Shown: positions 8,749 through 64,000, counted from the first letter of the stretch. The stretch: 64,000 nucleotides of DNA from Raillietiella orientalis (GCA_036172245.1 JAYWIR010000013.1:4402001-4466000), one strand, 5' to 3'. A program made the numbers and translations. Notes: generated from the sequence alone by a model not told the origin.

Positions 8749-8749
8749 A

Positions 8750-43093: not shown

Positions 43094-44693
43094 TACTGCT
43101 GGGAAAGTGATGCTGAGTCTCCCGCCTCACCTAGGGGCGGGACGCCGGCTTTCTCCTGTGCGGTGGGGGGCGGCTCGACGACCCCCTCCGTCTCCATCGG
43201 CTCCGTCTCGACCGCTCGTGGGAGTTCAGGACTCGTGTCCATCTCTCCCACGCTCGCCGCACCCTCGTTTCCGGAGGATTCCCCTTCCTCGGAGGAGACG
43301 ATCCTCCTCGGGTTACGGATTTTCCTTCCGGTCTTCCTCGGGGGTGCAGATGCGGATGGTGCGTGTCCGGTCTCCGGGTCCGAGTCCGAGGTCCCGGTCC
43401 CCCTCCTCTCGGCCGGACGTCGAACGGCCTTCTTCCCGACCTTTGCGGGAGGCTGCTGACTGGCGGCGAGCTCGGCGGCGGCTTTTACAAAGCCCGCGTC
43501 ATCGCGGCTCTCCCCCTCGCCGCAGCCCTCGGACGCTGTTTGCACAGCGACGGGGCTGTCAGCGTTGTTGCACACGGCAACGTCTTGTTCGCACGGCACT
43601 TCGGCGTCTGCAAGGCGCTCCAGTGCGACCGTGCATTTTTTCAGTCCCTGCTTTTTCGCGGGTTTCGCGGTTTTTGCAGGGACTTTATTTTTATTATTTA
43701 CGTCCTTTTTTTCTTTCTTTTTCTTTGGACTGACCTTTTGCCAGCCAGGCTCTTCTCCTTCCACCTCGGTTACCTGCGTTTCTGCAGACGGGGTGGTCGG
43801 GATGCCGTTTTTGGCTGGCTCCGGGTCAACCGTATTTTCAGAAGGCGGCCTGGTCTTGCCAGGCTTCTTGCTCGCGTTCGTGCCGCTCACGGCAGCAGCC
43901 GGCGCGCGCGAAGTCTTTTTGGGGCACACTTCTTCCGTGTGCCCGATTGCCTCGCACTTGCGGCAGGTGATGTTGGGGCAGCGTTTCTTCACGTGCCCCG
44001 TACCATCACAAAACGCACAGTATTTGGGTTTCCCAGATACCAGATGTCGACAGAATCTCCGTCGACTACTAGTTTATGGGGAACCCCAATGTCCTTATTC
44101 ACAGTCACACGTGCCGCGGCGAGTCCGCTCAGGAGTCCGTCATAAGTACGGAACCTGTTGGGCTTCAGCCACAGCGCGTGTACGGTGCCGAATTTGCTGA
44201 GTTCAGCCCTAACGGCGCTCGGTGACATCCGCACGGTGATTCCACGGAGGTGGACTACTATTGAGTTGTCCACCGGGACAGGAAAGATCTGGCGGCCCTC
44301 GACCCTGACGGGGGTTCGCAGCAGTCTTTGCGCCAACCCTGCTTCTTTGTAGGTCAACTCGACATGCTGTCCCCCGCTGCGGATGGAGAGACCCAGCAGA
44401 TCCTCCTTGTTAACGTTCAACCGGTGGAGCTCCTTCTCGAAGGAGCGCACCACACGGTCATCAAACACCCGGCCTACCTTATACAGCAGACTCGGGTTGT
44501 AGTTGTAGGCCTTGTAGGCCTGGGCCTCGGCGATGGCCGCTGCAGATGGCGCGGCGACCGTGGCGCTGTAGTCCCTCGCCGGCGCGGGGAACGAAGCTTT
44601 CGGGGCAGGTGCCCCTATCTCCATGGGTACGGGGGACGTTCGCCCGGCCCCCACCCCACATTCACTAGTGGCGGGGTCAGGCATTTCTGCCAT
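43093..44693 (-). CDS. T ORF1, gag-like nucleic-acid-binding protein with CCHC knuckles (one frameshift near 44030)
   Basis: ORFs 43989-44807 and 43093-43992 join at DIWYLG/KPKYC. Knuckle CRKCEAIGHTEEVC. Confidence 0.85.
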
Positions 44694-44742
44694 CCCCCGA
44701 CCACTGATGCACCGCACTACACCAATAAAGTCGAGCGAGTCA

Positions 44743-44764
44743 GGAGCGCGCAGAAAACACGTCT
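44743..44764 (-). promoter_or_regulatory. candidate internal Pol II promoter element (DPE-like AGACGTG + fixed-spaced GCTCC), representative copy
   Basis: The same 21-nt pattern occurs at the 5' end of X, Y, Y', N, Q, U and U'. RGWCGTG is the original Drosophila DPE consensus found in LINE promoters. Confidence 0.55.
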
Positions 44765-45478
44765 GACCGTCGGCGCGGCTGGTGTTGCATTGGGGACTCC
44801 TATGCAAAGCACGCCCCTTTCATTGGAATTCCGGAATTGTGGATGCGAATTGTGCAGTGTGTGGGGAACATGAGACCTTCCCTCACCTCAACATTGATTG
44901 TGTCGCCCTTCTACCCATGTGGGATCGACTGTCGACGATTTTGAACATTCCCGGGGGCGACCAAAAAGACATTTTCCGTCGCCTCTTCATGCAGGACTCC
45001 CTGTCAGCAGCTGCGTGTGTAGCAGTCCTCTGCGGCATACGCGGGATCCTGGCAAACTGGGCTACGTCCTACAGACGTCATCACAGGCGAAACGCCATCC
45101 AATGGGCGGCCCTAAACATTCAGAAGGCTTCCCGATTGTCCCGGCTAAGATCATTAGGTTCGGCACTTCTCCGCATCCTGAACAGGATACAGAGTACCTC
45201 TCGGAGTGACCAGTGATCCCATCCCAGCCCTCCCCTCTTACAAAACATTGCCCTTCCCTTGGTTTTGATTTTTGTTTTTTCTGTTTTTGTTTGTGGGATT
45301 CCCTCCCCCTCCGCATCCGCGCAGGATCTCTGCAACTTGTGAACTGGCAGCGGCAAGTGTGTCCAGCCAGGCGGAACCACTTGTTCCGCTCAAAGACTCT
45401 TAGAATAATTTCAAAGACTTTATTATGAAATTTTTATTACATAAAAATTTTAATAATAAATGCCCGGGCAAATCCGGG

Positions 45479-45495
45479 TGATATATATATATATA
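45479..45495. repeat. (TA)n microsatellite at the U / U' head-to-tail junction
   Basis: GGGTG-ATATATATATATATA-CCGGCTGG. Confidence 0.85.
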
Positions 45496-48009
45496 CCGGC
45501 TGGAGCCACAGCCAACGACGGACGTGTTTTCCAAGCGCTCCATCAAGAGAAGGGTTCCTTTGTATCGTGTAATGTGCTTTCGCGGCTGCTGACGAGCAAA
45601 GATGCCTGGAAATGCCGCCTCTAAAGGCAAGGGAGGCGGAAATGCTCCGCTTTCCAAGCCTGCTGAGGTGCGGTCAAGCCCCACCACCCAATCGTCCCCC
45701 GCCGCCCCAGCGAGGGCATGGAGCGCGGTGGCAGCAGCAGAAACGCCGGACGACTCCGCGGAAATTGCGGTCTACATAAAGAAGGGCCATAATCTTGCCC
45801 TTCTGTACAAGGTAGGCAATTTATATTCGCCTCTTTGTCAACAAAATTTGGGGATGTCATCCTTAAGATGGGCATTAAGGAAGAGGAGATTGCGTGCCTC
45901 TCCGTGCGCAGCGGCGGGCAGTTTGCCGAGTTAATCTGCAAAGATGCAGCTCTGACTCACAAACTCCTCTGCACGCCTGTGCAGATGGAGGGTCGCAACA
46001 TCCTTTTCTACACGGTGGACCGTTCTATTGTGATCCACCTAAGGGGAACAACGGTGTGAATGGACGATACGACCATTCGCGCCGAAATTGAAAAATACGC
46101 GGCGATTCCTGCCACGTTACTGAAGCCGAACCCTTTCGGTATTAGAACTGCCTTTAGCGGGCTCGTCGCCGAACGCGTGACCCGTCGCAAGGAATGCAAA
46201 GTTCCCCACAAACTCGAGATCGGCACCAAGTTTGTCGATGTATGGTATGTGGGGAAGCCGAAGGTTTGCGGCATATGTAAGACGTTCGGGCATCTCAAAC
46301 AGAGATGCCCGGACGCATTATGCCCCACGTGCAACTCTAAGGGCCACACCAAAGTGGTGTGCCCAATGAACGTCGCCTCACTGCCGTCAGAATCTTCCCA
46401 GAATATTAAGGAGAAGATTGCTGCTGAAATAAATCGAAATGTAATCGCGGAAAGACCGCCGACCGAAGCAGTCGTGCAGCAAGCAGCGGACTCATTAAAA
46501 GAGAATCCGAAACAGACTGCCGACGAGAAAGGCTGGCAGCTGGTCTCCCGCAAAATTCAATTTATTAAAAAAACCGCGTCCGCCCCTGCGACAATCTCCA
46601 AAGGCAACGCCAAGGCCGCGCCTCAGGAGGTCATGAAGGAATGCCGCGCGAGAATTCGACGCGTCCCGGAGATCGACAACCGCTCCCCTACGAAATACAT
46701 ATGCAATGACGTCACTCCCGCTGAACCCGCTGTCGCGCATGCGCGGACGCCGCGACTAAGTCGCGAATCGAGCGTAAGCAGCGAAGAAGGAGCTTTCAGG
46801 AAAGCCACGGAAGAACTGGTGGCCATGTTCCAGCAGCCACCCAAGGCAGAGGAAAATGACTTGAGTTCCCCGGCTGAGGCAAAAGGACCAGAGTCTAGCG
46901 AGTCCGAAGCCGAAGCCGGCAACGCACCTTCCCTCGATCGTTGAAAGTGCAGGGCAAGACCTAAGGTAGGCAACCCGCGAAGCACAGCTCCTTCTCAGGC
47001 GGAGGAGGGAATGCTCTCGGCAGACGAGAAGGCGAAGTCCGCGAGGTCTCGCAATCCCTCGTTGGAAGCGGTCGTGCCTAAGCAAGGTACATCGCCGTTG
47101 ATCGACGCACAGCCTCCATGCGAGTTTCAAGCCGTCGAAATTAATGTACTTCTCCCGCCTCCTGAACAGGAGGCGGCAATCACCCCATCATATTATACAT
47201 ACACCGTCGCGTGGACTCTGCTGTCTACGGCGCTTGTGCGTAGTCAGCTAAAACGTCAACGGGTTGCGCGAAGTCGGAAAGAGGAGAGCAATAGCCGCCA
47301 TCTTGCGGGATTTCGATCTGGCAAACCTACACAAGACGCACGTGCTCCATGCAGAAGAGACCCAGGAAATTGAAACGATCGCATGAGGGCGGCTCACATG
47401 GCGCAACGGAAATCACCACAACCGCGCTGTGGCGTTATTTATCAAGCCAGCCGTGGATCAGGCGCTGCGCAACGTGCAGTTCGACGGATGGGGTGAAATC
47501 GGTCAGCTTGTGATCAAGTGGTCCGACGCGATCGACCTCGTGATTACGAACTTGTACGCGCCAGGCGATGGGGCCACAGCTCCGCCGAACGCACTGCGTT
47601 CTTTGAAGGTTTGCGGCGAGATTGTCTGGCCGAAACGGACTTTAAAAGGGCACACCGGATTGCAGGGGAATTTAACGTCCGCCTGCTGGCACGTGCGCCC
47701 GGAACACGAGCACAACTGGACAACGATATGTGCGCAGCAATGCAGGCCCGCACCTTGTTTGCCAGTGACGATAAGACTGAGACAAGGATAGACCACGTGT
47801 TCCTTGACAATGATCTGTGCACGCGGGTGAGAAATCGGGGAACATTGCTTTTCGCGTTGTCCGACCACCCACGGCTTGTGATCGAGATGCATATGCAAGA
47901 AAGAGGCCCACCCTCTCGAACGTTGCGTTTGCCAGGGGACTGGTTGCGCCTCGCAGGAGCAGCTGAACACCTACGCGAATTCCTGCGAGGATTGCATCTT
48001 GAGACGCTC
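45495..48009 (+). mobile_element. 5' part of U' (close duplicate of U 34607-about 36915)
   Basis: Near-identical 5' UTR, ORF1 and EN. Truncated at LHLETL by the R 3' end. Confidence 0.9.
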
Positions 48010-48015
48010 ACTTCT

Positions 48016-50859
48016 CAACCGGTTGCGTTGGGGTGTTTATTCTTTCGAATAAAACTAGCGTGGGTGGCTGACCTGGTGATCCAGCCACGCACTGGTACAA
48101 AAAATTAAGCCTGCTGGGTCACCGGTTCGCATTCCGGTACGATCCACTACGACAGCAGAAGAAGCAAGGACAAAACAAAACATTCAACAAAAAAAAGAAA
48201 TATATAAAAAAAAGATCTGCGGGGCCAGGGAAGGGATCACAGTCTGCTGTGGGGCCGTTGCATCGTTTGCAGGATTCCGGCAAGCAGTTTTTGGACTGTT
48301 GAATACAGATGGGTCCATCCTGTCGCCGTCCGCATAAATTCGGCTGCGCACTGGATGACACCCTTATCGTGAGGTCCTCCTGTTGCCTTGTTCCATGCAG
48401 CGACGATCCCACGGAAGCAGCACAGAGCTGCTAACGAGGCCGATGGCCGAAGAGCGTCGCAAACGAAGAGGGATCTAACTGCTTCTCTATGGTTGCCACA
48501 GGGGATACCGATTGCCGCGGAAAAAGGGTTCCAAAGGGGTCGAACAGGCAAACAATCCAAAAGGTGGTGAGAGAAGGACTCCCGTTCTCCGCACCTCGCA
48601 CAATTAGGGCTCACCGCTCTCCAGGTCCAATGGTGTCGGCGGGCGTTGCAGGGGAGTCCTCGATGCAGCAACAATAGCGCCGACTCCAGCCATTTTAAGG
48701 GGAGGGTGGAGGTGTTCATCAGCACCGGGGGACACTTTAATTGTTCCCGAGGAACATTAAACAGCTCGCCCCAGCTCAAAAGTCCATTAGGGGTGGTAAT
48801 CCGGGCCGCAGTATCGCAGAGAATTCCCGTTTTTCATTCTTCGATCTTTTTCTCTGTACCGGAGATTTTAGTATACACATCCCATGCTGCAGCGGTGTTG
48901 CCGTCCAAATGTTTCGCGAACGAAAACAGCATTGCAGTGAGGGGAGTTCTTCTTGACCACGCTTGTTTTTGGGGGTTCTCCAAGACCTCCCAGAGCGTCA
49001 GGCGGTCATCACGGGCGAAGAATTGTCTTTGCCATTCTTGGGTGCGTTCCTGGTTGCTCCTTGCCCACGTCTGAACCGTTTCCTTTAGTCATGCAGATTT
49101 GTTAACAAGGCGACAGCAGAGTCATCCTGCGTTCTTCCTCAACAGGTCAGCCACTCTCCGCAGCTGCACCCAGCAGTGACCAACTTGGCGGCGACGACGG
49201 AACGCAAGGGAGGATTACAGTCCCACCTTGCCTGTAGCCTGCTCGATGAGGAGACGTGCGGGCTCGCACCAACTGTTATTCCAATATTTCGCCACTAGGG
49301 CGAGTAACCGAAACTGGAGCTGAGCTCCAGCCGCTCTAGCGTCAGGAGGCCGAGACCGCCGTCCCTACGCGGAACGCTCAAGTCCTCAAGCCGGACTCGG
49401 GCCCTCCAACTACACCACAGGGCAATCCTTAGGAGGTCCTTCGTCCGCTTTTTAGTCTCTGTGGTCAAAAGGCAAACACAAAGTAGTGAACGGGGTAGGG
49501 GGGCCGCGCACGCATTCCACACCGCATCCCGTTCCGGCAGGAATCACCTGCGGCGTTGGAACGAGCCGATCGCCATCCCTACCTTCTGAAGGCAGCTGGA
49601 CTACGCATTGGAAGGAAGATAATCTCCCATCAGTACACCGAGGTAATTGAAGTACCGTACCGTGGGGATCCCCAAACGGACCCAGTCCGGCTGCCCTGCC
49701 CACGCTGCAACGATTGGCATGACGGACGACTTCGCCCTGTTCACCTCAAGTCCGGTTCCCCGACATAGCAGATCGAACAACTCCTCAACAGTTGATGCCG
49801 GGGTGGAAATAGGGAGAAGCAGCAGAAGGTCGTACGCATATGCTGACACCGCGGGCGTACCAAGATAGTCGCGCGGCAGGTGCGCTAGTGTTTCTCTGTA
49901 CGCTCTCAGTACCAACTCGAAGTAGGTACTGAAGAGCAAGGGAATCAAACTGTCTCAATGCCGTATGCCGCGTCGCACCGGTACGCCGTGCATGGTGTGT
50001 CCACTGGAAAGGATCTGGATGAGCGCGTAGCACTAGCAGGATCGCAGGTAGGTCAGCAAAGAGACCGAAAAGCCCAAGCGTTCCAAGAGCTCCAGCAGGA
50101 GACTGGTCGACACAGTCGAATGCTTTATGCAAATCGACAACGCCTGCGAGGGCTCCCTCCCCCCCAAACATTAGTTTTCTAGCGGCGGACATTCCGGAAG
50201 TTCGGTTGCTTATCCTGACTCTTTTCTGTTGGAGCGCGAGAAAGGTGCTGGCGAGGAACAGGTTGAAATCCATGCAACGCCCGGAAAGAGCATATTTCTG
50301 CTCTGGGCTGATGAAACTTTCCGCTAACCGCCTCAGGCATTCAGCCCACAATTTTGCCAGCAACTTGGCGTCCGCGTTTATCACGGTAATCGGTTGCCAG
50401 CTGCTCATGCTCCGAAGGTCTCCTCCCTTAGGGTGAAGACGCACCTTTGCCGAACGAAACGAGGCGGGGACGTCGCCCGTTTCGCGAATCAGCAAGGTGG
50501 GTTTCTTTACAAGAAGAGTGAGCTCTGCCGCGAAACATTGAAAAAATTCCGCTGGCAGGCCGTCCTCCCCAGGAACCTTCCGCCTCTTAAGCTTTCCGAT
50601 GGCTGAGATGATCTCGCCTATCGTGATAGGCTCGTCGAGTGTCTTTCTATCTTCCTCCACGATCACCGGAGCGCCTTCCGGAAGAAGAAGTCGCGAGGCA
50701 TCCTGATCTGGGGGTATTCTGGCGTAGAGGGAGGAATAAAACCTTCGTACGAGGTGCCTGATCGAGGGTGGGGCAGAGCGCTCCCGACCCTGGTCGTCCA
50801 GCAGGCTAACCGACCCGGACTGCCAGGCTTGACGCTCGGAGCCTGCTCGATGTTTCAGC
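48016..50859 (-). mobile_element. 3' part of LINE 'R' (post-EN linker, RT, CCHC, 3' UTR)
   Basis: KVPGEDGLPAEF, DLHKAFD, AYAYD and PNCARCGERESFSHHLLDC. Terminal motif at about 48016-48041 (rc). Confidence 0.85.
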
Positions 50860-53223
50860 CTGTGCGGCCCGTACACGTTCACCAGGATGAGGTGAACAGC
50901 AGCGGACCAGGCCAGTCGCACGCCGATGGTTCGTCCGGGTTGGGGACAGAACACTTCCAGAATAGTGGGGCCATGTGGTTCTTGATTAGGGTCGCCACAC
51001 CCTGCGTGTTCCGTTCTCCCTCGCTGACACACATCGGCCCGTTGAATCGCCGTTCCATTCGCTGACTAATCTCGAGACCCATCTTGTGGGTCTCCTGCAG
51101 GCACACTATGTCTTGTGCAATGGTCTGCACAATCCTTTTTCTTTTTCCTTGGTTAACCACACCGATTAGATTTCAGGAGGCGATGTTCAGGCTCCTGGCG
51201 ATCGACAGGGAAGAGGCCATAAAAGGGGAAGACCTATTTCTTGGCCTTCCTGAGCTTCTTCTGTCTGAGAGAGCCTGCTCTTCCAGACGATGAAGAAGCA
51301 GCAGGCTTCTCGCTGCCGGCGTCACTCTCCGTTCCAGTGAGTTCGGTTACTTCCGCCTCCTCCGTAGAGTGTTCGGCTCGCGCGTTCAATTTTCGAGATA
51401 GCGCCTCTATCTCGACCTTGGCGCAGAAGTTCGCCTTTACGTGAAGAAGCTGTTGTTCTAGCGTCTCGCGCTCGGTACCCTCCACAACCTGTTTCACCTT
51501 CTCCTGTGCATTGCAGATCTTCTGCAAGATATTCTCTTGCTGAGGCCCACTTTGCACCTCCATCACTTCTTCCGCAAGTGTTGCCAACTCCTCCGTGGAC
51601 TGGAGGGTCTCCTGTGACACTGGAGTGGCTTCCTGGTTTCCTTCTTTCGCGCCTTCCTGCGCTACCTCCATCTTTTAGCCTTCCTGCGCCGCTCCTTCTA
51701 GGATAAGAGGGGTTTCTTACCCCTTGACGAGCATTCTCCTCTTTCCTTTCTTTCCTACCTCAATGTAGCCGTCCGTCGATACCAGGACGGCTTCCTTCAC
51801 CTTTTTCGGCCTTTCTGCCGACTTCTGAGGCTGTTCGACCTCCTTGATGTTCTTCTCTCTCACGGGAGAGAGTCCTCGAATCCTTCTGCAATCGGCGAAT
51901 TCCGGACAGCTCCATTTCGCATGTCCGTGCTTCTTGCAGAAGGAGCACACCTCCGGTTGCGTGCAGTTTCGTACTTGATGTCCTACTTTGCCGCAGAGGA
52001 AGCACGACATGTAGGGAAAGTGCCGAATCTGTTGCCGAACTGCTTGCACACGGTGCAGAATACGGGTTCTTTCCGGTAGCGCACGTTCATTTCTTGGGAT
52101 TGTTCGTCAATGAACGCCAACCCAGGTATAACAGCTCCCTCCTTTACCTTCATCTTGGCGATCATGAAGCCAGAAAATATATTTCCAGAGAAGTTCTGAA
52201 ATTCAAGGTCCAGAACCTCCCCTGAATGCTCCAAAAAGTTCCACACCGTTAGCTGCGGTATGAGGATGGAAATGCCGTTTAAGAAGACGGTTGTGTATGG
52301 CATCTCGCCAATACCACAAACCATCCTTTCTTGAATATTGATCTCCTTCTGGATCAATCTCTCTCTAATCTTTTCACAGTCTATAAATACTGTGAAACCG
52401 TTGCTACTTTGTATAATCGCCTGTATGCGATCAAAATTGATGACAGTTTTATCCAGGGACAGATACACCTCCCTGATGTTGTTGAATTTTATGAGCTCAG
52501 TGTTGAAAATAATGGTTTTTACATTCGGCCCTAGCACGACGATCGGCCGACCTACTTTTTGTACTTTTCCACTTAGCGGCTTTCCAAATTTCCTTGACGG
52601 CTTGACACTCGCTTGTCCTGCCGCCACCAACGCATGCGTAATGGGCTATGCCGCCGCAGCCGAACAGGATGGCGTCACACCCTGTACAGCGTGGACGCCC
52701 GCGGATCCCGCCTGAGACGCCGCCGCCGCGGGCGCAGCCCTCGACGTTGCAACCGTTGCCGCCGCCGGGGGCACCCCGGCATCGCCGCCGCAGACGCGAC
52801 CTTCCCCGCCGCGGGCGCGATCCTAGGCGTCGCCGCCGCGGGCACGACTTCCACCGTCGTCGCCGCGGGCACGACCCTTGGCATCGCCGCCGCCGGCGCA
52901 GCAAAGCCCGCCGCGGGCACGATGCTCGGCATGCCCGCCGCCGCCTCGCCTTTCCCGCACGTTACCTCCTCGGCTTCCATGGAAGAGGACGGCCTCTCTA
53001 CTCCTCCTGCAGGTGCCTGCATCCTGGCAGCTGGTCTTGCTGCACGGGACGACTGCAGGTCTTCCGCCATCATCTCCTCGGCGCTTCTTTTGTAGCTGCA
53101 TGAGGAGATCCTATTCATCACACTAGTCCAAACTCACTTTCATCTGTATACTTTCCCTCTCCGGGCACACACGATCACAATCAACTGAATAACCGTCGTC
53201 GTGCGCGCAATACTGTGAACGTC
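50848..53223 (-). mobile_element. 5' half of family-B LINE (5' UTR, ORF1, EN N-terminus up to NVYGPHRLKHR)
   Basis: ORF1 fragments 51234-53121 with CFLCGKVGHQVRNC and CSFCKKHGHAKWSC. ORF2 ATG at 51220, with IVCLQETH and VNVYGP. Confidence 0.85.
52715..52950 (-). repeat. GC-rich coding minisatellite (about 27-nt imperfect units) in the B ORF1 N-terminus
   Basis: Recurrent (C)GCCGCGGGC(A/G)CGA encodes VPAAG / VPAAT / VPAAA / APAAG repeats. Confidence 0.75.
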
Positions 53224-53245
53224 GAAGCCAGCTTACCGACTCGGC

Positions 53246-56200
53246 AAGTTTCCCTAAGTCCCACAAGGGGTGGGGTAAATTTATTTTTGAAAAATTTTTC
53301 TACAAAAACATTCACACTACAGTCTCATTTATACCATTTGCACTGTTTTTACCAATCTGAAGTCCATGGGTTCACAAGTTCTGCACTCATGGTGGGTTTC
53401 CTGCTGTTTGGTCCCGGGCGTTGTCCTCTATCCTCTTCAGGATGAATCGGTACGTCCAGGCTTGGATTTCTCCGCGATTCCTAATGCCAATTTCCCTCTT
53501 CAGAATCCCATGTAGGATCTAAATCGGTGGTGCGGCTCTCCTGGCTTTCCTCATTTTCCACCACCGCACAAGTATGACGGTGATGAAGAGGGCAATGGTG
53601 GTCCTCACCATGAGATTGTAACAGGGAACATTACCATCTTCCTGAGACATCCCAACGAGGATCTCCATTGCGGATCTGTTCGTAAGTCCAATGATCCTTT
53701 TTAGGATCAGCCAGTCATGCAGCAATGTGGAAAACGTCAAGACGTGAAGTCTCTTGTCGTTGTCTCCACATGCCGTGCAGTCTCGATCTTCAAGCCTCCC
53801 GGTATAGTACTGCAATCGGGACCCACTCTGGATTCCTCCATGATATAACATCAGGAGGGCATCCTGGGTGCCCAGCGGAAGGTCACTCCTCCAGAGCATC
53901 GTGCCGATGGCTAGCAGGTTGATCCGGTCACTTCCGTAGCGATCGGCGGCTTCCTGGAGGGCACTGATGTCAAAGTCTTCTTCCCGAATTAATCTTAGGA
54001 GGTTTGTTTTGATTACCCTGGAACACGCGAAGTCGTTGTGGTTAAGCCACACCTCGCGGATCATGTGGGTAAACCTTCCTAACATCATCTCTATATACCT
54101 AAGTATACAAGTGTGATGTAGATTCCCTCCTCGCCTCCATTCCTGGATTCGTTGTAGGGTAACTCTGGACCGCTGCTCGAACCAGCTTCTCGTGTCCGGC
54201 GGGACAGGAAGCATTCAAGGGATCACCAGGATGAACCCCTCCTTCTAGAGTTTCCTACTTATCGGCTCGATCTTGATTTTGTGCTTTCGCAGCAGCCGTT
54301 GCTTCCTCGTCTAGGATGGGTCGATTTTTATCCATCGCCTGCACGGCCTAGCAGCGCAATCATCAGGCCTTTCGAGTTGTTTAAAAAGAACGCGTAGGCC
54401 CTGTGCGCCGCATACGGCCAGTCATCACAGTGAGTGGCAATATCCAGGATGTGTCGCGTATCCATGATTTCTATGGAGTGTGCAAGCGACTTCATCCCGG
54501 AACCGCCTTCTTCCCTGGGACGACACAGGGGTTCTAGTCAAACTCTTGGGCGATAGGGGCCCCACAGTGTTTTTCTCTGCAGCTTGTGGAACTCCCTCGT
54601 GGTGTTCTTGTTTATCTTCGCAAAGGACGCCCCGAAGAGCACTCTTGGAAGGAGTACTCCATTCCATATGTTTGCCTTTCGCTTCATCCCAAGTTCCGTT
54701 CGGGTGTACTTGGCTGCTTCCTTAGCCGTTTCCCCTAGGATCTCGGTCCACAATAGCTTCGACGCGGATTCGTCGCCAATGCAGACATCCACTTACTTGA
54801 CCGTGTTCACCGTTCGGAATCTTCTTGTTAGAGCGGAGAGATCGAGGATTTTAACGGGCAAGAGTTGGCTTTTCTGGGCGTTGATCTTTAGACTCAGGCC
54901 TTCATCCATCAGGTCTACCACATCCAGAAACGCTTGTTGATTTCTCTCTTACATGATAAAGATGAGTAGATCATCTGCGTATGCCAAATGACGCTGGCCA
55001 TCGATGGTTATGCCTTGCAGTCCTCCGCTCTTCTCGATAAAGGACGACAACGCCTCCATGTAGATGACGAACAGCTTCGAACTTAGCGAATCGCCTTGCC
55101 GGACTCCCCGTTCCATTCGGATTGCTGCCGTCTCCTGGCCGTTGATTTTCGATCGGCAGTACTGGTTCTGGACTACCACCCTTACGAAGTTGCTGAAGTG
55201 TTCCGGAAGGCCTAGCTTCTTCAGAACCTTCAGCAACATCCCATGGTCGATGGAGTCGAAAGCCTTCTCCATGTCAGTGAACACCAGCACCAGGTTCTCG
55301 CCGACGTATCGGCAAAGTGCGACGGTGGCCAGGGCACAATTGACATTGTCCGACATGTGACGTCCAGGGACTGCACACGTTTGGACCGGAGAGATGACCT
55401 TCGACATGACTTTGCCTAAGCGGTTGGACCAGATCTACGCCAACCAAATGGCATCCGAGTTCGGGATCGAGATCGGCCTCCATTGAGCGACCTGCGTGAG
55501 ATCGCCTCCTTTTGGCAGCAATCTCATCCTACTCTCGTAGAAGGATTCCGGGAGTCTTCCTTCTTCACGGATGCAGAGGGTCAACTGGTGGAACAAACGC
55601 AGGTAGGCATGCAGGTAAAGCTGATAGTGCGTGATAGGTACACTGTCAGTGCCCGCCGCCACATACTTGCGCAGTTGTCCAAAAGCAGTCTTCACCTCGA
55701 CCTGGAAGAGTTCCTTCTTCAGTCTGTTCCGCTGGAGGTCGTCGGTCCTCTTCTCGAGATAGCTTAGAAAGGCTTGTTGACTAGAGCGACAGAGATGTTG
55801 TCGCCTGAAGTGTTTCGTGTAATGCCTGTGAAAGGCTTCCACGATATCCTCGGACGACTGTCGCTCTTGAACGTCGTACTGGATGCAGAAGATATCTGTT
55901 GCCAGATTTCTATTCTCCAGCACGCCGATCCCCCCTTTTATGTTGTTGAAGACGTACCGACTCTCGCACTGATCGGAGTACTTTGAGAGTGAGCGATCTT
56001 GGATGTTCAGCTCCCGGTACGCCTCCTGCCTCAAGCGTCTATCCCCGAATTACATATTTGCAAACAGGTGTATCCTGTGTTTCAAGCTGCCCCAGTCGGT
56101 GATTCTTCCGATTTTTGTGGTCTTCAGAATCGTCTCCAGGACCTCCGGATTTCCAGGATGTGTCTTGAACCAGGCGGGCATGCTGATAGCGCCGTCATGG

Positions 56201-56529
56201 GGCCTTGCCTCCGACGAGGATTCTCCGTTCTTAGGGAAAACGGCGCCAACTAGTGATCGGACAGAGTGGTCAATGAGTCTCGAAAACCCTGAATGCGATT
56301 CCCTAGTTCGGTGCTGTGGAGGACGTGATCGATCAGCTTGTGACTTGCTGTTCGCCACGCCAATCCGAACTCGTCGGCTAGCCGCCGATATGCCGTCCTT
56401 TCTCTTGCGTCTTAAGAATGAGTGATATTATCCAATATGTTGAGATTGCCAGCAACAATCACCACGTCCTTAGGGGCGACCTTTTCACGGAGTGCTGCAT
56501 GAAGCACCTCTGCACAACGATGTTTCAGC
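53246..56529 (-). mobile_element. 3' half of family-B LINE (EN from LKHRC, RT, CCHC, 3' UTR)
   Basis: VIVAGNLN, IDH, WRPISIPNSD, DMEKAFD, RGVRQGDSLS, AYADD and DCTAC...HVL. 3' UTR homologous to 488-623. Confidence 0.85.
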
Positions 56530-59500
56530 AGGGGAGTAGTCCCCAAACGGCACACCAAGGTACTTGAGGCACCTCGCCGTGAGGATCCCCAGACGGACCC
56601 AGTCCTGCTGCCCTGCCCACGGCGCACCTACTGGCACCACCGACGACTTCGCCCTGTTGACCTGTAGTCCGGTCCCACGGCTGAGCAGATCGAAGAAGTC
56701 TCCGTCCGCCTTCGCCGGGGTGGACATAGGTAACAGGAGCAGAAGGTCGTCGGCATAGGCTGCTACGGCGGGCGTGCCGGGGCACGAGCTGGGCAAGGGG
56801 GCCAAAGTAACCCTGTAGGCTCTCAGCACCAACTCAAAGTAGGTGCCTAAAAGCAGGGGACTCAGGCTATCGCCCTGCCTGATGCCCCGCCGCACTGGCA
56901 CGCCGTACACCTTCTGACTGCTGAAAAAGATGCAGATAATCGCATTCCGCCAGCAAGAGCGCATTTAGGTGATCAAGAAGGGAGGGAAGCACATGCGACC
57001 CAGAAGCTCCAACAAAAGCTCCTGGTCAACACAGTCGAACGCCTTATGGACATCGACTGCGAGCGCTAGGGCCCCCTCCCCCGCCCAGGAGTCCATTCCC
57101 TGCCCTGCTAGCTGCCCCAAAGTGGGGTTGCCGATTTTTTCCTTCCGCTTTTTTTAGACACCTCTGCGCGTGCATCCATGTGCTCGCGAAGAAGAGGTTA
57201 TCATCCATACTTTGCCCGGGAACAGCATATGTCTGCTCCGGGCTAATTATGGATTCTGCCACCTGCCCCAGACGCGAAGCCCATAGCCCGGCAACCAACT
57301 CGACGTCCGTATATACAATCGTTATCGGACGCCAGTTGTTCACATTTCTAGGGTCTTCTCCTTTCGGCAGGAGCCTCACTCTGGCTGAACGAAACGAGGC
57401 GGTAACATCGCCTTGGTCTCGGATCAGCCTTGTCAGCTGAAGCAGAATGGGTGCCAGCTCTTCCGCGAAGCTCTCATAGAACTCCGTGGGCAAGTCGTCT
57501 TCCCCTGGAGCTTTCCACCTCTTAAGCCTTTTGATACCGGCGAGAATTTCGCCGGTGGTAAAAAGCTAGTCAAGGCTCTCCATCTCCTCCTCCTCTATTG
57601 CCGGGGTGCCATCCGGAAGCAAGAGCCGAGAAGCATCTTGATACTGGGGCGTCCTGGCGTAAAAGGAGGAATGATAACTCCGCACGAAATGCTGTACCGA
57701 CGCCGAAGACGAACATTCCCGGCTCTGGTGGATCAGCAAGCTGGCGGACCCGGATTGGCAGGCTTGGCGTTCGGCCCCGGCGCGGTACTCGGCCAGGCGA
57801 CTGACACTAGGGGTTCTCTCGTACTTACATGCCTGTAAATATGCCCAATGGTTGCCAGGACCCTCGTCGAATCCGGGAAACAGGCGGTCCAGAAAGAACT
57901 GCTCGCAGAACTCCCAGACCAAGGCCTTAAGAAGGTGCCAATCCGTTAGACTCTGTGGCGTGCCTCCTCTCAGGAATTCGCGAAGGAGTTCCTTCGCACC
58001 TGAGAGTCGCGTGCAGTCTTCCGGCAGACGCCAATCCATTGATGGCGTTCCCTTGTCGCGAGGCCGCATCTCGAAAATCAGCCAGGAATGGTCCGACAGC
58101 GTCGACGCAATCTTCCCCCGTTTGCCCACCCGTGAACACAGGTCAGCGTCAAGGAAGACGTGGTCGATGCTGCAGTCCATTCTCCTCTCACCCGCGAACA
58201 AGTTGCGCCCACGCATGGCGGCGCACAACCCGTTCAACGCGTTCCATTGTGTTTCCGGCTCACCTCTTAGCAGGCGGAGATCTCGCGCTATCAGGTGAGC
58301 CTTCCGCACGCTCGTGTTCGCCAGCCAGTCGCGCTTCAGGGATTCAAGCAGCCTGGTACGGTTGCTGTATCCCTTTTGACCGGTTGGGGCGTACACATTC
58401 GTGACGATCAGATCGATCGAGTCGGACCAGCCGAGAGTCAGCTGACCGACCCGACCTTCGTCATCGAAGCGCACGCCCTTCACGGCAGCGTTGATGGACG
58501 GCTTCACGAAGAACGCGACCCCGCAGGTGTTGCGGATGACGCATTGGCAGTGCAGCCGACCCCCCGCGATCGTCTCTATCTCCTGGTCGTCTGCCGCGGT
58601 GATCACGTGGATCTCCTGCAACAGGGCCAGGTCGAACTCCCGCAGGGTGTCGGCTGTATCTCGCCTGTTAACGTCGTCGCCCAGCCCGTTGACATTCCAA
58701 CAGGCGGCGCGAATCCGACGGAAACTGGCGAGCCCAGGTGTTACTCCTGGGAAAATGGCAGTGCGGCGTCCGCCACCTGCTGGGGCGGGACGCTAGGTGG
58801 AGGAGGAGGGTCAGGTGCTGAAGGCACCTGGTCCCCCTCCTCCATAGGAAACTGTACGTCGAGCGGGTAACCCACAGGTGGGGTCGCGCCTACCTCTTCG
58901 CCCTCCTCCGTGGGGGCGGGCTGTTTAGGTTCGGCGCCTGCAGGGGGGACTTCACCCCTCTGTTCACCCTCCTCCATGGGTGTGACCGGATCGACGGCTT
59001 CCGAGCGTGGGAATTCCTCCTCCGAATATCCCACGCTGGCGACGGCTTCCGTCTTCTCCTCCTCGCTGGTGGAGGGCAGGCGCCTCCTGGGCTTCTGGGA
59101 CTTGCGTGCCGACTTCTTGGGAGGTGCCTCATAGGAGGAGGATGCACTTTCGGCCCCCAGGTCTAACTCACCTGTGGGGGCCTTGTTCGCCGGAGCCGGC
59201 CTTCTCAAGGCCTTGCGCGAGGGGTTCTCGCGCTCGGCCAGCGTGACCGCGAGCTCCTCCGCCGCCTGCGCGAACGCGGCGTCCGCGGCTTCGACCGCCG
59301 CTATGTCGCGCGGCTCACCCTCTTTGTAAACAGAGGGTTCGCCGTCGCGAGCCTCGGGCGCAGAGGAAATGGCAAGGGGAGGATCGTCGCTCCGGGTGGC
59401 AACCTCGGGAACGACGATTCGTTCCAGTGCCACCGTGCACTCGCGCAGAGTTTTCCCGCGCGGACCGGGTTTTTTTGGCTTACCGGCCGTCTTGCGCTCT

Positions 59501-60575
59501 TTGCTCTCCGCGGGTGGGAGTTTCCTCGGCTTTCTGGCCTCTACAAGCTTCCATCCCTCTTCGCCTTCCACGGTTTCAGAAGGTTTACCCTCCGGCTTTC
59601 GCGCCGGAGGTTGAGGTGTTGGCAGCTTGTGCTGGTCCTTTTCCACTTTAGGTCTAGAGACCTTTGAAGCGCCTTTCCCCTGCGCTTTTTTCGCGGCAGG
59701 TGGAACCAGTGTGGGGCGTTTGGGGCACACGCGCCGAACGTGGCTCCGCTCCCCGCACAAATGGCATTGTATATTGGGACACCTTTTACGTAGGTGTCCC
59801 ACGGTATCACAATGCCCGCAATACCGGGGCTTCCCTACATACCACAGGTCGACGTTTTCTTCCAACACCTGTAGGTTGTCGGGAAGCCCAGAATTCTCTC
59901 TTACGGTGACCCGCGCTGCAGCCTGCCCACCAAAAAGGCTATTGAAGCAGTCGAAAATGGAGGGTTTCGGCCACAGTGCGTGCACCTCACCGTACTTTCG
60001 CAGTTTTTCACCAACCGCTGACCGCGTCATGCGGCTGGTGATACCGGTCATGTGGACCATTACGTAGCGGTCCTTTGATACTGGCAGGATCTTGCGGCCG
60101 TCTACGTTCAGCGGCGCATGGATTAGACGGTGAGCCAAGGTGACATCTTTGCAGACCACCTCGACCCGCTGCCCGCCGCTGAGGACAGAGAGGCCGTCTA
60201 GATCCTTCTCAGTGACATTCGGGTCCTTCAACGCTTTGCAGAAGGCGCGTGCTGTCCGGCCGTCGAACAAGTTGCCTACCTGTTAGACAAGCGATGGCTT
60301 GTACCCGGAGGCCTTGTATGCGGCCATCTCCGCCATGGTTTCTGCGCTGGGCGCGGCCACCATGGCGCTCCATTTCCTCGGCGTGGGCAGGCAAGATTCC
60401 GGGGCGGCTGCGTCTGCTCCAGTAGGCTGTGGGTGCGAACTAGCCTCTTCCACTCCCACCTCCATCGCGGTGTGCTCTGGCGTCGTGGCCATTGGACACC
60501 GACGATGTACACAAAACACCACACACAAGAAAGCGTTTTCCTACTACTCTTTGAGGAGTGAAGGAAAAACACGTT
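56524..60575 (-). mobile_element. 5' part of LINE 'Q' (ORF1, EN, RT to thumb); same family as N
   Basis: ORF 58741-60270 with two knuckles; EN ORF 57566-58621; RT motifs WRPITIV, QGDSLSP, AYADD and KYLG. 5' motif at 60555-60575 (rc). Confidence 0.9.
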
Positions 60576-60576
60576 C

Positions 60577-60870
60577 TCCAGCTGGCCTTGGAGGGTTCTG
60601 GCTGCAAAGAGGCAGCCAGCTACTCCGCGGCCTGCGCGAAGGCTACGTCATCGATGGTGGTGTCGATGACGCATGCCGCCGCCGGCTCGCTCCCCTCATT
60701 GTTGACAGTGTCAGCAGGGGGGTTGTCGTCGGTAGCGCAAATTCTTTTTCGCAGCGGTTGGGAATACGCTCCACGATAACACTGCACGGACGTGTTATGG
60801 GTTGCTCCTCGAGCGGGTTTCCTTTCCGTCTTCTTGTGTGTGGTGTGCCCCAGTGGGTCCACTAGGATGT
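60577..60870 (-). pseudogene. internal ORF1 fragment
   Basis: The rc contains PCSVIVER and DDVAFAQAAE, motifs shared with the N/Q/T ORF1s. Confidence 0.6.
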
Positions 60871-60920
60871 CCACGGAGCCCCTGCAGCAAAAGATCAATG
60901 TGGAGGCCGCTACGTCGTTT

Positions 60921-63690
60921 TCAAAGGTCTGTAAACCGGAGATGTATGCCGGTGATGTCCTCTTTCACCTTGTCACGAAGATGACACCACCTTGAAGCCT
61001 CCTCCATGAATTGAGCTCTAAGCAGGTGAGCCTCCCTTCGCTGCGCTGACAACACCAGGGCGTAGCGCGCTTTCACGATGGCGCGAACGCAACACTTGGT
61101 GGCGACAATCGCGCCGACCGAAAGTCCATTTCTGCTGAAGAAGCGCCGCAGCATATCAATGACAGTGCCTCCTTGTGGCATGATGGCCGAAGTGAGCCTT
61201 CGCCACAGTTCCCGGAGGTCACCGCAGTCCAGCAAAAGGTGCGGAAAAAACTCGATCTCTCCGCACCTTAAACAGTTTGGCGAAGCAGCTCCCTTGGATA
61301 CGATGCTTCGCTGCCTATTACAGTGTAATGCACAATGTAAACAGAGCAGCACATGTTGTTTCCACTTTAGGGGGAACACGGAGCTGTCCAAACAAACGGG
61401 GAAAACCACTATCTCTTCGAGAAGCACACTTAAATGTTCGCTCCACCGAAGCAGGCCCTTCGCCCGATTCCGAGGGGTGGCGGCTTGCACCAGCTCCTTT
61501 GTCGGCCAGCTGCCGAGGAGCTTACTGACTCCTGCTATTTTGCAGGAGAACTCCCATTCCACCGGTAGGCAACCGTCGTTGCTTGCCCTGAGAGCAGACA
61601 GTGCTGCGGCGAGCGGTGTGGCGGCCAGACGATCCGACATCTTCTTCTCCTACATGACTTCGTCCATTAGATGACTGACGAGAAGTCGCAGGCGTCGAAG
61701 ATCTTCCGGGCGCGTTCCTTCGGAAGCTGCCCACGATGAAAGAGATTCCTGCCGCCATGCATTAATGTTCATGGGGCGGCAGGAGATCCAGCTTTGGGCT
61801 TCCAGCAGTGAGGACAGCTGCCTCAGCGGGAAGGCAAACCCTATTCTGGTGTGTCGAATGTGGGGCAGCAACGAAAGCAGTCCCTCGCTTCCCGTGCAGC
61901 GCCTTAGTATAAATCGTGCGGGTAAGCACCACGGCGTACACCGCAGCTTGACACAGAGCCGCAGAATGCGAAACTGCACCTCTAGTTCGATGCTTTTTAA
62001 GTCTAGGATGCCCAGGCCTGCATCCTGACGCGGCGCCACCAAGTCTTGAAGTCTTACGGGGGATCTTGCAGCGCCCCACAGCGCTTTGCGTAGAAGGCGC
62101 TGCGCCCAGACTTTGACTTTCTGGGGACGTGGACAAACAAAAAACAGGGGGCGGAGGAGATGGGCAACGAAGGTGTTCCAGATGCAGGCCCGTTCCGGCA
62201 AGACGAACTCGCTTCCTGAAAACGGGCCAAGTGCACGCTCTGCCTTCCGAAGGCAGTCCGACCTCGCTTCTGAGATGCAGAATTCGTCCAACGGCACGTC
62301 AAGGTACCTGAGGTACCTGCCCGTGGAGATCCTTAGGCCGATCCAGTCGGACTGCCCCTCCCACGTCGCAACCACCGGAACAACCATACACTTACCCCTG
62401 TTAACGCTCACGCCCGCACCGCAGCGAATTAACTAAAAGAAGTCTTCAAGCGATGACGCAGGGGTGGATATGGGCAACAGGAGAAGCAGGTCGTCGGCAT
62501 AGAATGTCACGGCCGGCGTACCTGGACAGAAGGTCGGCAGGTTAGCTAGCGTCAGCCTGTAAACCTCCAGCACCAATTCAAAAAAGAAAATAAAGAGCAG
62601 CGGGGTTAAGCTATCACCCTGCCGAATTCCTCGTCGTACCGGCACGCCGTACACGCGACAGCCACTGAAAACAATGGATGTAATCGCGTGGCGCCAGCAG
62701 GAGCGCAAGTACGCCAACAGGAATGCCGGAAGACCCAGACGTTCCAAAAGCTCAAGAAGAAGCTTTTGGTTCACGCAATCGAAAGCTTTGTGCAGATCGA
62801 CTGCAACCGCCAAGGCTCCCGGTGTCTCCCTTTGCGTCCCGCGCCTCTGTCGGTGAGAGATCGAAGGCGTCGCTTCCGCACGACGATCCACCTCCACACG
62901 AAGCTGCAATTGCAGCCATGTGCGGATGAACAAGAGATTCGCATCCATGGACCGTCCTGGAACAGCGTACGTCTGCTCCGGACTTACCAAGGATTCCGCG
63001 ATCCTACCCATCCGCGCCACCCAAAGTTTCCAGAACAACTTGACGTGCGAATTCACTAATGTGATCGGACGCCAGTTTTTCAGTTGGCGCAAATCTTCGC
63101 CTTTCGGCATTAGACGCACCTTCGCTGAGCAAAACGAGGCGGGCACATCGCCCGAGTATCGCTTCAACCACGAGAGTTGGAGAACCAGGGGGATGAGCTC
63201 CGCCGCAAAACACTGGAAGAATTCCGCGGGGAGCCCATCTTCGCCTGGCACTTTTCGACTCTTGAGCCCCGAGATGGCCGAGGAAATTTCCTCTGCCGTG
63301 AAGGGCTCATCAAGACGCGCGCGTTCCCTCTCGTGTACAACAGGTGCATCAATCGGCAGAAGCAGCCGGGAGAGGCTGCGTTCCGTCGGTGCCTCTGCAT
63401 ACAGAGAAGAGTCATAGCGCCTCACTATCCGTCGCAAGTCGGCTGGAGCCGAGCTTTCCCGGTCCCGGTCGTCGAGCAGAACTGTCGCCCCTGACTGCCA
63501 GACCTGGCGCTCGGCATAGGCCTTGTACTTAAATAATCGATAAACGTCCGGGCGCCTGGAAAGAAGCGGGCCTGCAGAAAATCTCTGCTGTTGGCAACGC
63601 CCTCTCGGAAGCCGCGCGGAAGCTGGTGCAAGGGAAACCGGCAGCAGAACTCGCGGACCGATCTTTTGAGATCGTCCCAGTCCTCGAGTC
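60921..63690 (-). mobile_element. ORF2 3' part of LINE 'P' (no recognisable 3' UTR or terminal hairpin)
   Basis: ORFs 62433-63791, 61650-62411 and 60921-61640 contain WRPITLVN, DLHKAFD, QGDSL, FYADD and PNCLRC...HLLLDC. Confidence 0.85.
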
Positions 63691-63691
63691 A

Positions 63692-64000
63692 GAGCGGCCG
63701 AGTTTTTGTTTCGCTCTTCAGCGTTTGTGGTTTTATTTTTATTCTTTTTTTTCTTGGTGTGCCAGTGGATTCGGTGGTGGCTAGGCAGCAATGCCTCGGA
63801 CCATCACCAATGTTAAGGAGGGGGCGACGTCTATGTCGCCCCCTGAATCAATGGATGTGGGGGCAGCCGCCCTCACAGAAGCGACTCCCTCGCTAGGGAG
63901 AAGCTGGAGTTCCGTGTTTGCGGCACCAACGCAAGCCGCTGCATCTGAGTTAAAAGCCTACCTGGAGGAGGGGAACAATCATCCTCTACTCTACAAGTAA
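63692..64000 (+). mobile_element. 5' end of LINE 'O' (start of ORF1)
   Basis: RSWSSVFAAPT...AYLEEGNNHPLLYK matches the ORF1 N-termini of the other copies. Confidence 0.75.

Follow-up and report, generated by a model that had tools for sequence, protein, structure and literature searches.

How does a LINE retrotransposon come to lie with its two halves in swapped order, between two copies of one 12-mer? The question is raised by an element, here called B, in a 64,000-nt stretch of Raillietiella orientalis DNA (the whole stretch that was analysed, hereafter the window), within a region dense in LINE copies.

A permuted LINE between two 12-mers

The sequence CGATGTTTCAGC is present at 50848–50859 and 56518–56529. 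Neither strand of the 64-kb window holds any further match, and two matches were reproduced in 0 of 100 dinucleotide shuffles. The bases outside the two copies differ on each side. Among 10 pairs of windows flanking the junctions, the 12-mer is the sole exact string common to the flanks that rises above the null (4 to 10 nt in approximately 400 random window pairs); strings common to the remaining nine pairs measure 5–8 nt. The first-pass annotation had described this repeat with its differing flanks, and its coordinates proved exact.

The minus-strand order given there also holds. An A-type LINE, Q (56530–60575; family 5′ terminus, ORF1, endonuclease (EN) and most of the reverse transcriptase (RT)), meets the 12-mer copy at 56518–56529, followed by the 3′ part of B (53241–56517; C-terminal half of the endonuclease, RT, C-terminal region and 3′ UTR). 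A short spacer (53224–53240) separates the B 3′ terminus from the putative B 5′ end. The 5′ part of B (50860–53223, the upper boundary being putative) carries a putative 5′ UTR, ORF1 with a CCHC knuckle and the N-terminal half of an APE endonuclease, and is joined through the 12-mer copy at 50848–50859 to R (48010–50847), an A-type LINE that is 5′-truncated in the EN–RT linker and keeps its own 3′ tail. Q, both B parts and R all read in the sense direction along the minus strand. R adjoins a plus-sense A-type LINE, T2 (45495–48009), of which only the 5′ part is present, cut in the EN–RT linker at 48009. The sole other B-family copy in the window is a plus-strand 3′ end at 1–629.

B is thus circularly permuted in the assembly: its back half is placed before its front half with a 12-base overlap, giving, with the putative 5′ end, an element of 2376 + 3289 − 12 = 5653 nt (5.65 kb). 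Its reverse transcriptase matches RVT_1 (PF00078) with E = 8.3e-20 and 71.8 bits against a 29.6-bit Pfam cutoff, and a zf-CCHC knuckle (PF00098, E = 1.3e-5) lies in ORF1, upstream of ORF2. Relatives of the B reverse transcriptase number 37757 library proteins at E ≤ 0.001, the best of them merely 34–38% identical, and the top named match is an unnamed turtle protein (34% identity). Together with the endonuclease and a common 3′ terminus, these features identify B as a non-LTR (LINE) retrotransposon, possibly CR1-like.

The Pfam match of B to Exo_endo_phos (PF03372) is weak (E = 0.0033, 17.7 bits, under the 24.5-bit cutoff). On an independent 266-position endonuclease profile, made from the N-terminal regions of 41 ORF2 proteins in the database, pieces of the B 5′ part occupy positions 11–79 and 81–116, with an end extrapolated to ~119–120, and pieces of the 3′ part occupy positions 125–148 and 195–230, with a start extrapolated to ~115; the four pieces score E = 1.9e-11 (positions 11–79), 0.013, 0.036 and 8.2e-4. 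The halves therefore abut on the profile and overlap by approximately four residues, the LKHR encoded by the 12-mer, in a register good to ± ~2 residues, which bears out the earlier view that the repeat joins them into one APE domain. The motifs NVYGP, GNLN, IDHV and SDH are readable in the translation, and the domain contains at least one frameshift. The coding parts of the two halves are alike in GC content (0.51 vs 0.512) and in observed/expected CpG (0.88 vs 0.89), and are unlike Q (GC 0.60) and R (GC 0.554).

In a region this rich in LINE copies, the assembly might have put the B halves in the wrong order or misjoined a junction. We consider this very unlikely: the window holds no N and no repeat pair above 92.8% identity, the elements at the junctions are only 65–82% identical to their relatives and so uniquely placeable by reads, a 12-bp overlap is far under the word and overlap sizes of assemblers, and the microhomologies and complementary truncations make biological sense. 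B is permuted in this assembly and its complementary halves overlap by the 12-mer; some template with the B tail joined to the B head is needed.

Tail-to-head junction and spacer

Alignment with the copy at 1–629 (plus strand; 520 of 637 positions identical, 82%) places the 3′ terminus of B at 53241 rather than at 53246, as first annotated. This terminus is common to both B copies in the window (2/2), and it carries no poly(A) tail. The 5′ part, like the EN/RT part, is represented by a single copy in the window, so the 5′ end at 53223, and with it the full length first ascribed to B, is putative; if it is correct, the spacer measures 17 nt (53224–53240), not the 22 nt (53224–53245) proposed earlier. 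After the 3′ terminus, the 5′ UTR and ORF1 follow within 17 nt (at most ~170 nt if the 5′ end lies lower). B therefore has a tail-to-head junction inside the copy and outer ends that are adjacent in one unit, as expected of a closed-loop template.

A genomic head-to-tail tandem of B, from which one unit plus 12 nt was copied here from DNA or from read-through RNA, would contain the same tail–spacer–head junction. Yet a linear dimer offers no cause for starting and ending at the same 12-mer (chance ~2 × 12/5650), and the one further B 3′ end that the window contains, at 1–629, is not followed by B 5′ sequence (1 of 1), which makes a tandem source quite improbable.

The spacer shows no significant resemblance to the expected continuation of Q: 93 of 1500 random 27-mers from the window score equally, and local alignment does no better than with shuffles. 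Nothing between the two B parts can be recognised as Q. This bears on the idea that a hot spot in B RNA gave rise to independent events, in which a 5′-truncated B entered Q and a separate B 5′/R chimera inserted alongside, with B RNA often cut or paused at the 12-mer. A fungal LINE was reported to switch templates at specific sites with a consensus sequence (PMC2104539, in the sections cited here), but the donor and acceptor sites would have to coincide within 12 nt and the two insertions would have to lie merely ~17 nt apart, with no recognisable Q sequence left between the B parts. We regard such independent events as extremely unlikely.

In a 181-nt fold, the putative first bases of B are predicted to form a 9-bp helix with the B 3′ UTR (z = −2.98; 1 of 200 shuffles as stable). 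This predicted helix may lend weak support to a B RNA template with bridged ends.

Outer junctions and lost target DNA

Q is 74.8% identical to 7385–8740 and, in inverted orientation, 77.6% identical to 8750–10769, with which it has its 5′ terminus in common; its identity to R is only 68.3% over 1228 nt. The inverted copy of Q's subfamily at 6179–10769 has a twin-priming-like arrangement, and on account of it irregular priming appears to occur in this genome. Q is without approximately 1.4 kb at its 3′ end, and the remainder was not found downstream.

The Q-side 12-mer, aligned in register with nine Q relatives, matches them at 9, 8, 5, 5, 7, 8, 8, 6 and 6 of 12 positions, the closest relative giving the 9 (chance of at least 9/12: 3.9e-4). 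The next block of true Q sequence gives 7, 11, 11, 7, 8, 5, 6, 6 and 6, so the 12-mer fits the family equally well. To the left of it the relatives' matches drop to 3–5 and then to 0–2, and an A-family profile aligns Q across the 12-mer, to 56512. Because the 12-mer is homologous to Q's own family at this place, the Q/B 3′ junction is either microhomology or target DNA and not a free cut site. The first-pass annotation had proposed a circle opened inside the endonuclease and then integrated; the permutation and the need for a tail-to-head template stand, whereas the free cut does not sit with the homology of the Q-side 12-mer to the Q family.

If the 12-mer is target DNA, both copies could be a target-site duplication at an older Q–12-mer–R joint of chimeric or deletion origin, which a permuted B entered through a cut staggered by 12 bp; the 12-mer may then be no part of B. 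The 12-mer does resemble the Q family as well as true Q sequence does, and 12 bp is a usual size for LINE target-site duplications (12–18 bp for L1 in the part of PMC11702581 cited here). The same site for start and finish would follow if both ends pair with the strands of one staggered cut. The length of the B loop on the endonuclease profile is neutral, one LKHR being two residues over the consensus and none being two under. Against this, the cut must hit the older Q/R joint within ~3 nt, estimated at roughly 1 in 1000 a priori, and one LKHR keeps an arginine as in A-type endonucleases (HRRAER vs HRLKHR) that is lost without it, a weak point. On balance this duplication appears unlikely.

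R is 70.5% identical to 28499–31238 and 71.6% identical to 40518–42128. Its homology to five relatives stops at 50847–50850, so that its 5′ side is cut exactly where B begins. At this B 5′/R junction the 12-mer has no more than CGA (3 nt) in common, in register, with the closest R relative, and the five relatives match it at 5–6 of 12 positions. The R 3′ tail (48005–48054) aligns collinearly with that of the copy at 39274–39322 (74.5%, E = 3e-4), also in a three-way tail alignment, and adjoins the breakpoint of T2. T2 is 92.8% and 90.9% identical to 34607–36916, the alignment ending at 48009, and its continuation (from 36917 onward) is absent at ~90% identity anywhere in 44000–64000.

Plus-sense T2 and minus-sense Q converge, and both are without the parts that face the block of R and B. 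From these convergent truncations, the 8.5-kb block (48010–56529, R plus permuted B) appears to have replaced at least ~2.4 + 1.4 kb, i.e., at least 3.8 kb. The R tail at the T2 breakpoint and the missing facing parts point to one insertion-with-deletion event that would include R, and no longer suit the earlier picture of Q and R as passive neighbours. No target-site duplication was found around the block or any sub-block; the flanks have no common string of 7 nt or more, and no repeat but the 12-mer exceeds the null.

Candidate routes to a proposed single lap

Our leading explanation, which we hold tentatively, is that the block 48010–56529 arose by one LINE-driven target-primed reverse transcription (TPRT) insertion with template switches and target deletion. 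Reverse transcription would begin on R RNA at a nick within the older element T2. At the EN–RT linker of R, the reverse transcriptase would switch to an internal site of B RNA, the 12-mer, with at most 3 nt of microhomology. It would copy B to its 5′ end and then jump to a B RNA 3′ end, most simply of the same molecule, or continue round a circular B RNA. Synthesis would go on to its own entry point with a 12-nt overshoot and stop after one lap, as the enzyme runs into its own RNA:cDNA duplex. The free cDNA end would then be joined, via 9–12 nt of microhomology, to upstream DNA within the older element Q, with loss of the intervening DNA, including the 3′ parts of T2 and Q. We infer the single event, the RNA template and the stop at the enzyme's own duplex from this arrangement.

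The complementary B halves, their overlap by the 12-mer and their equal composition argue for this explanation. The common orientation of Q, B 3′, B 5′ and R fits a template-switch chimera, which requires it, and an R 3′ tail at the T2 breakpoint is expected of the RNA that primes the event. Several components of this explanation are described in the sections of the literature cited here: L1 insertion sites with deletions of 1–10 kb, microhomology at truncated 5′ junctions and insertions from two RNAs (PMC11702581), and a LINE reverse transcriptase making double template jumps (PMC2104539). The first-pass annotation held that TPRT is by itself unable to put the 3′ half upstream of the 5′ half, but template jumping has been seen to lengthen products in vitro and to yield tandem head-to-tail copies in cells (PMC11371274, with R2 protein; 10.1101/792986).

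Other observations count against it. Two rare template switches are required in one event, and no direct precedent for a stop after one lap was found in the literature searched. The absence of a target-site duplication removes a hallmark of such insertions, though a deletion model predicts it. A rough tally of interrupted reading frames, with small counts, makes B and R look at least as decayed as Q, which should be the older element in this model; intact source RNAs are, however, not required. The spacer also counts against it: 17 nt are long for non-templated addition at a template jump, and suit the single target-site duplication that a DNA circle would retain.

In known template-switch chimeras (U6/L1 and tripartite insertions; PMC2104539, PMC13174262 and PMC11702581, as far as cited here), the parts likewise lie in one orientation, the 3′ end of the 3′-most partner is at the target, the joints have short microhomology and more than one switch is documented. 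The present block has the common orientation and the own 3′ end of R at the target. Here, in contrast, the second template would be a LINE entered internally and copied for a whole lap into a permuted product, with a deletion and no flanking target-site duplication. The R2 tandems (PMC11371274, cited sections) similarly have tail-to-head joints, made when the enzyme completes a cDNA and jumps to the 3′ end of a further template, but they are multimers of full units from the 3′ end, whereas B would have been entered internally and abandoned after one lap. Twin priming also derives two cDNA segments from one RNA, their internal breakpoints lying close together, and short duplications or deletions of 1–10 bp are reported (PMC11702581, in the part cited). 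It inverts one segment, while template-switch chimeras need a common orientation (PMC13174262, likewise); both B segments lie directly on the minus strand, with their order swapped and neither inverted.

Non-colinear retrocopies with tail-to-head junctions arise from circular RNAs or, as the authors allow in the sections cited, from open RNAs with close 5′ and 3′ ends (PMC4897178). Those circRNA-derived pseudogenes are back-spliced host exons copied in trans; here a whole autonomous LINE is involved, with UTRs and spacer and no splice junction.

The loop may instead have been DNA. A circle of B, closed tail to head via ~17 nt, could have been cut open with a 12-bp stagger and its ends filled in, or could have been copied for one lap, and then captured by microhomology-mediated end joining at a resected break between pre-existing R and Q. 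It would account for the permutation with its 12-nt terminal redundancy, and a spacer of 17–22 nt is as long as one target-site duplication; the microhomology at the two junctions is in keeping with end joining that follows resection, and the loss of the facing parts of T2 and Q with a resected break. Episomal circles of the Zorro3 LINE in yeast, attributed to a TPRT variant, are predicted to hold target-site DNA at the tail–head joint, matching the short spacer (PMC3510499, in the sections cited). They are extrachromosomal DNA in experimental yeast, whereas B is a chromosomal permuted copy, and the cited sections of PMC3510499 report no reintegration of Zorro3; a natural case of a reintegrated LINE circle was not found in the literature searched. 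Three separate events would be needed (R into T2, circle formation, and break with capture), the common orientation of the four pieces would be chance (about 1 in 4), the 5′ cut of R exactly at B would be a mere resection end, and a replicative copy would have no obvious cause to stop after one lap. The sequence itself does not separate a DNA loop from an RNA loop, and we consider the DNA circle possible, if doubtful.

Whichever molecule formed the loop, we think it fairly probable that the locus preserves, as a natural fossil, a LINE that was copied a single time round a closed loop, either its own RNA with a 5′-to-3′ end jump, stopped on its own cDNA, or a LINE-derived circle, and fixed together with the 3′ part of a second LINE and a multi-kb deletion. 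If true, it would provide direct genomic evidence of LINE RNA or DNA serving as a circular template in vivo.

The 12-nt repeat and the two halves of element B

In a search of both strands of the 64-kb window, the 12-mer CGATGTTTCAGC is present only at 50848–50859 and 56518–56529, and two matches to it arose in 0 of 100 dinucleotide shuffles. String search and flank comparison confirmed the coordinates of the first-pass annotation and the differing flanks on both sides. The repeat bounds B, a LINE with an APE endonuclease, and the annotated minus-strand order holds: Q, 12-mer, B 3′ part, spacer, B 5′ part, 12-mer, R. Q (60575–56530, minus strand) is an A-type LINE comprising ORF1, endonuclease and most of the reverse transcriptase (RT). 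The B 3′ part (56517–53241, minus) encodes the second half of the APE endonuclease, RT (PF00078, E 8.3e-20) and the C-terminal region, followed by the 3′ UTR; the B 5′ part (about 53223–50860, minus) comprises the UTR, a CCHC-knuckle ORF1 (PF00098, E 1.3e-5) and the N-terminal half of the endonuclease. R (50847–48010, minus) is an A-type LINE beginning in its EN-RT linker; being 68.3% identical to Q over 1228 nt, it is a distinct element. When sequence flanking each of the region's five junctions was compared in 10 window pairs, only the 12-mer exceeded the shared strings expected at random (4–10 nt across about 400 random pairs); the remaining nine had 5–8 nt in common.

The two parts of B were placed on an endonuclease profile of 266 positions, built from 41 ORF2 proteins matched in a library search, each represented by its N-terminal 270 residues. 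The 5′ part covers positions 11–79 (E 1.9e-11) and 81–116, ending 3 residues past the latter, and the 3′ part covers positions 125–148 and 195–230, its first residue extrapolating to about 115. The halves therefore abut, overlapping by about 4 residues (LKHR, the coding of the 12-mer) with a register uncertainty of about 2 residues, and their complementary coverage bears out the single APE domain restored through the 12-mer in the earlier annotation. Relative to the profile consensus, the loop is 2 residues longer with one LKHR and 2 residues shorter without it. An A-type endonuclease in the window has HRRAER in the place of HRLKHR, the sequence of B when its halves are joined through a single 12-mer, and this comparison mildly favors the 12-mer as B sequence. 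The coding parts of the halves agree in GC content (0.51 and 0.512) and CpG observed/expected ratio (0.88 and 0.89), the GC content of the neighbors being 0.60 (Q) and 0.554 (R). The reassembled unit measures 5653 nt.

The N-terminal part of B ORF1 (52720–52950, minus) consists of imperfect GC-rich repeats of 21–27 nt in 5–6 copies (60–76% identity), coding for AAAMP/VVPAA-like peptides. B and R are in frame across the 12-mer, forming a single 426-codon open frame (49785–51065, minus) that runs from the endonuclease half of B into the linker and RT of R; the chance of an in-frame fusion is 1 in 3.

The sole other copy of B found in the window by tblastn lies at 1–629 (plus strand; 520/637 identical positions), and alignment with it moves the B 3′ terminus from the previously assigned 53246 to 53241. 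The short spacer between the tail and the putative B start at 53223 would thus measure 17 nt rather than 22 nt. The same tblastn search of the window found no other copy of the 5′ part; ORF1 apparently starts near 53060, which places the tail-to-head joint somewhere within 53070–53241. The spacer was also considered as a continuation of Q and rejected, since equal scores occurred in 93 of 1500 random 27-mers and the local alignment was matched by 294/300 and 292/300 shuffles. The tail-to-head region (53150–53330, minus) has a predicted fold of −56.5 kcal/mol (z = −2.98; 1 of 200 shuffles equally stable), in which a 9-bp helix joins the putative first bases of B, after the spacer, to the B 3′ UTR. 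Such a helix, only marginally above chance, could keep the ends of B RNA together. The predicted fold also contains a small hairpin in which the spacer pairs with the last bases of B.

No homologue of the B endonuclease half was found among longer proteins at E ≤ 0.001. A full library search with B RT returned distant relatives only (≤38% identity), their clusters being named for one turtle protein and otherwise consisting of unnamed metagenome proteins; a scan of metagenome contigs with the RT gave 89 pattern matches, 0 of them confirmed.

Junctions with the neighboring elements

An in-register alignment with Q was made for nine A-type copies in the window. Across the 12 columns of the Q-side repeat, these copies match at 9, 8, 5, 5, 7, 8, 8, 6 and 6 positions, and in the next 12 columns, undoubted Q sequence, at 7, 11, 11, 7, 8, 5, 6, 6 and 6; 12 columns deeper into B the matches fall to 3–5, thereafter to 0–2. 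The probability of at least 9/12 matches by chance is 3.9e-4, and the family profile aligns Q as far as 56512. The joint is therefore either a long microhomology or a place where the 12-mer is target DNA. Homology to the repeat had been described for both neighbors; it is upheld at Q (9/12 with one relative), while at R the 12-mer and the closest relative have just CGA in common, and five relatives match at 5–6 of 12 positions. The repeat as a pure target-site duplication at an older Q/R joint would give the best account of the Q homology, but the cut would have to coincide exactly with the older junction, and we regard this history as improbable.

At the other end of the block formed by R and permuted B (48010–56529), the 51 nt below 48064 are the 3′ tail of R itself: 48005–48054 aligns collinearly with another copy's tail at 39274–39322 (74.5%, E 3e-4), and three tails can be aligned. 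These alignments put the end of R at 48009/48010, the exact breakpoint of the plus-sense A-type LINE T2 (45495–48009). Assignment of 48010–48060 to the remainder of Q was rejected, as 67/300 shuffles equal its score and the stretch is the tail of R. T2 is about 91% identical to 34607–36916 and cut in the EN-RT linker; its continuation is absent from 44000–64000, where about 90% identity would make it easily visible. Q keeps the 5′ terminus of its family, common to the copy at 8750; about 1.4 kb of its 3′ end is missing, and profile and alignment searches found no remainder. T2 and Q are thus convergent, each missing the side that faces the block. Judged from these truncated sequences, the 8.5-kb block evidently took the place of at least about 3.8 kb, and R is evidently part of the architecture of the event. 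Comparison of junction flanks revealed no target-site duplication above the null around the block or any sub-block.

A misassembly seems unlikely: the highest identity of any repeat pair in the window is 92.8%, the elements at the junctions are just 65–82% identical to their relatives, and the truncations and microhomologies agree with one another.

Candidate histories of the block

Any explanation has to provide a copy of B whose start and end fall on the same 12 nt and which passes through a tail-to-head joint. This follows naturally from a closed-loop template copied until it meets its own start, or from both B ends pairing with the two strands of one 12-nt staggered cut. A linear B tandem as the source leaves the shared start and end unexplained (chance about 2 × 12 in 5650) and is rated quite improbable; two independent events meet the same coincidence, at the same chance, and are still harder to credit. 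Large tandem duplication, reciprocal exchange and nested insertion alone each fail on the permuted B or on the 12-nt coincidence.

The most economical history, which we favor only tentatively, is one target-primed reverse transcription event laying down R and permuted B. R RNA would be primed at a nick in T2; at the R linker, the enzyme would switch to B RNA at the 12-mer with at most 3 nt of microhomology, copy to the B 5′ end and jump to the B RNA 3′ end. Copying would then continue up to the RNA:cDNA duplex at the entry point with a 12-nt overshoot, and the freed cDNA end would pair at the strongest microhomology that resected upstream DNA offered, inside Q, with loss of the DNA in between. 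With a per-site probability of about 4e-4 for 9/12 or more matches, a few kb of sequence should suffice to contain one.

There is precedent for all of these steps except the self-limited lap. The literature describes same-orientation template switches between RNAs with microhomology (PMC13174262, PMC11702581), double template switches (PMC2104539), template jumps from 5′ to 3′ ends with head-to-tail tandem products (PMC11371274; 10.1101/792986), deletions of 1–10 kb and, where 5′ junctions are truncated, joining by microhomology (PMC11702581), and non-colinear retrocopies out of circular or end-bridged RNAs (PMC4897178).

The first-pass annotation had instead proposed a DNA circle of B, opened inside the endonuclease and integrated. 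The 17-nt spacer matches the size of a target-site duplication, and RNA-derived LINE circles have been shown in yeast, with target DNA predicted at the joint (PMC3510499). Two observations support the circle and count against target-primed reverse transcription: the lack of a target-site duplication around the block, and the age of Q, apparently no older than B or R by a rough density of interrupted frames. However, a circle calls for three events, the orientations would agree only by chance, and nothing obvious would halt its replicative copying after a single lap; we consider it unlikely, if less so than the tandem or the older-joint history.

Surrounding LINEs and meaning of the locus

Several LINE families, with at least 12 copies in all (62–93% identity among copies), take up most of the window. 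CpG observed/expected ratios of about 0.9–1.0 in all four LINE pieces, with 0.6–0.7 in B 3′ UTRs, indicate that strong CpG decay is absent. The 12–22 kb stretch is GC-poor (0.43–0.51), and a Pfam scan of 13 reading frames across 11.8–22.4 kb gave 0 families. A Q-subfamily copy at 6179–10769 combines an RT-to-3′ part (6179–8740, minus; 74.8% identical to Q) with an inverted stretch of 5′ UTR, ORF1 and endonuclease start (8750–10769; 77.6% identical to Q 60575–58558); about 680 nt of endonuclease are absent and the true 5′ terminus lies at the inversion joint, a layout that would be expected from twin priming. Two A-type LINEs, 34607–39277 (plus) and 39274–44730 (minus), meet at their 3′ ends (39190–39340) with apparently overlapping tails, and the meeting site of the R tail and T2 partially resembles an A-type tail in reverse complement. 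Pairing of 3′ ends with the target may guide A-type elements.

Experiments or host genes have already supplied examples of template jumping, of LINE circles and of circRNA retrocopies, and the locus represents a variant of known LINE insertion irregularities. In the literature searches, no published genome came up in which an entire autonomous LINE is fixed as a permuted copy one lap long. As a single old, decayed locus with assembly-derived junctions, it carries moderate weight at present; its interest lies in the closed-loop templating in vivo that it would show. If the junctions are real, tail-spacer-head joints with a short terminal overlap would be a structure searchable genome-wide, offering a means of testing for template re-use by LINE reverse transcriptases in vivo and for the return of LINE episomes to chromosomes.
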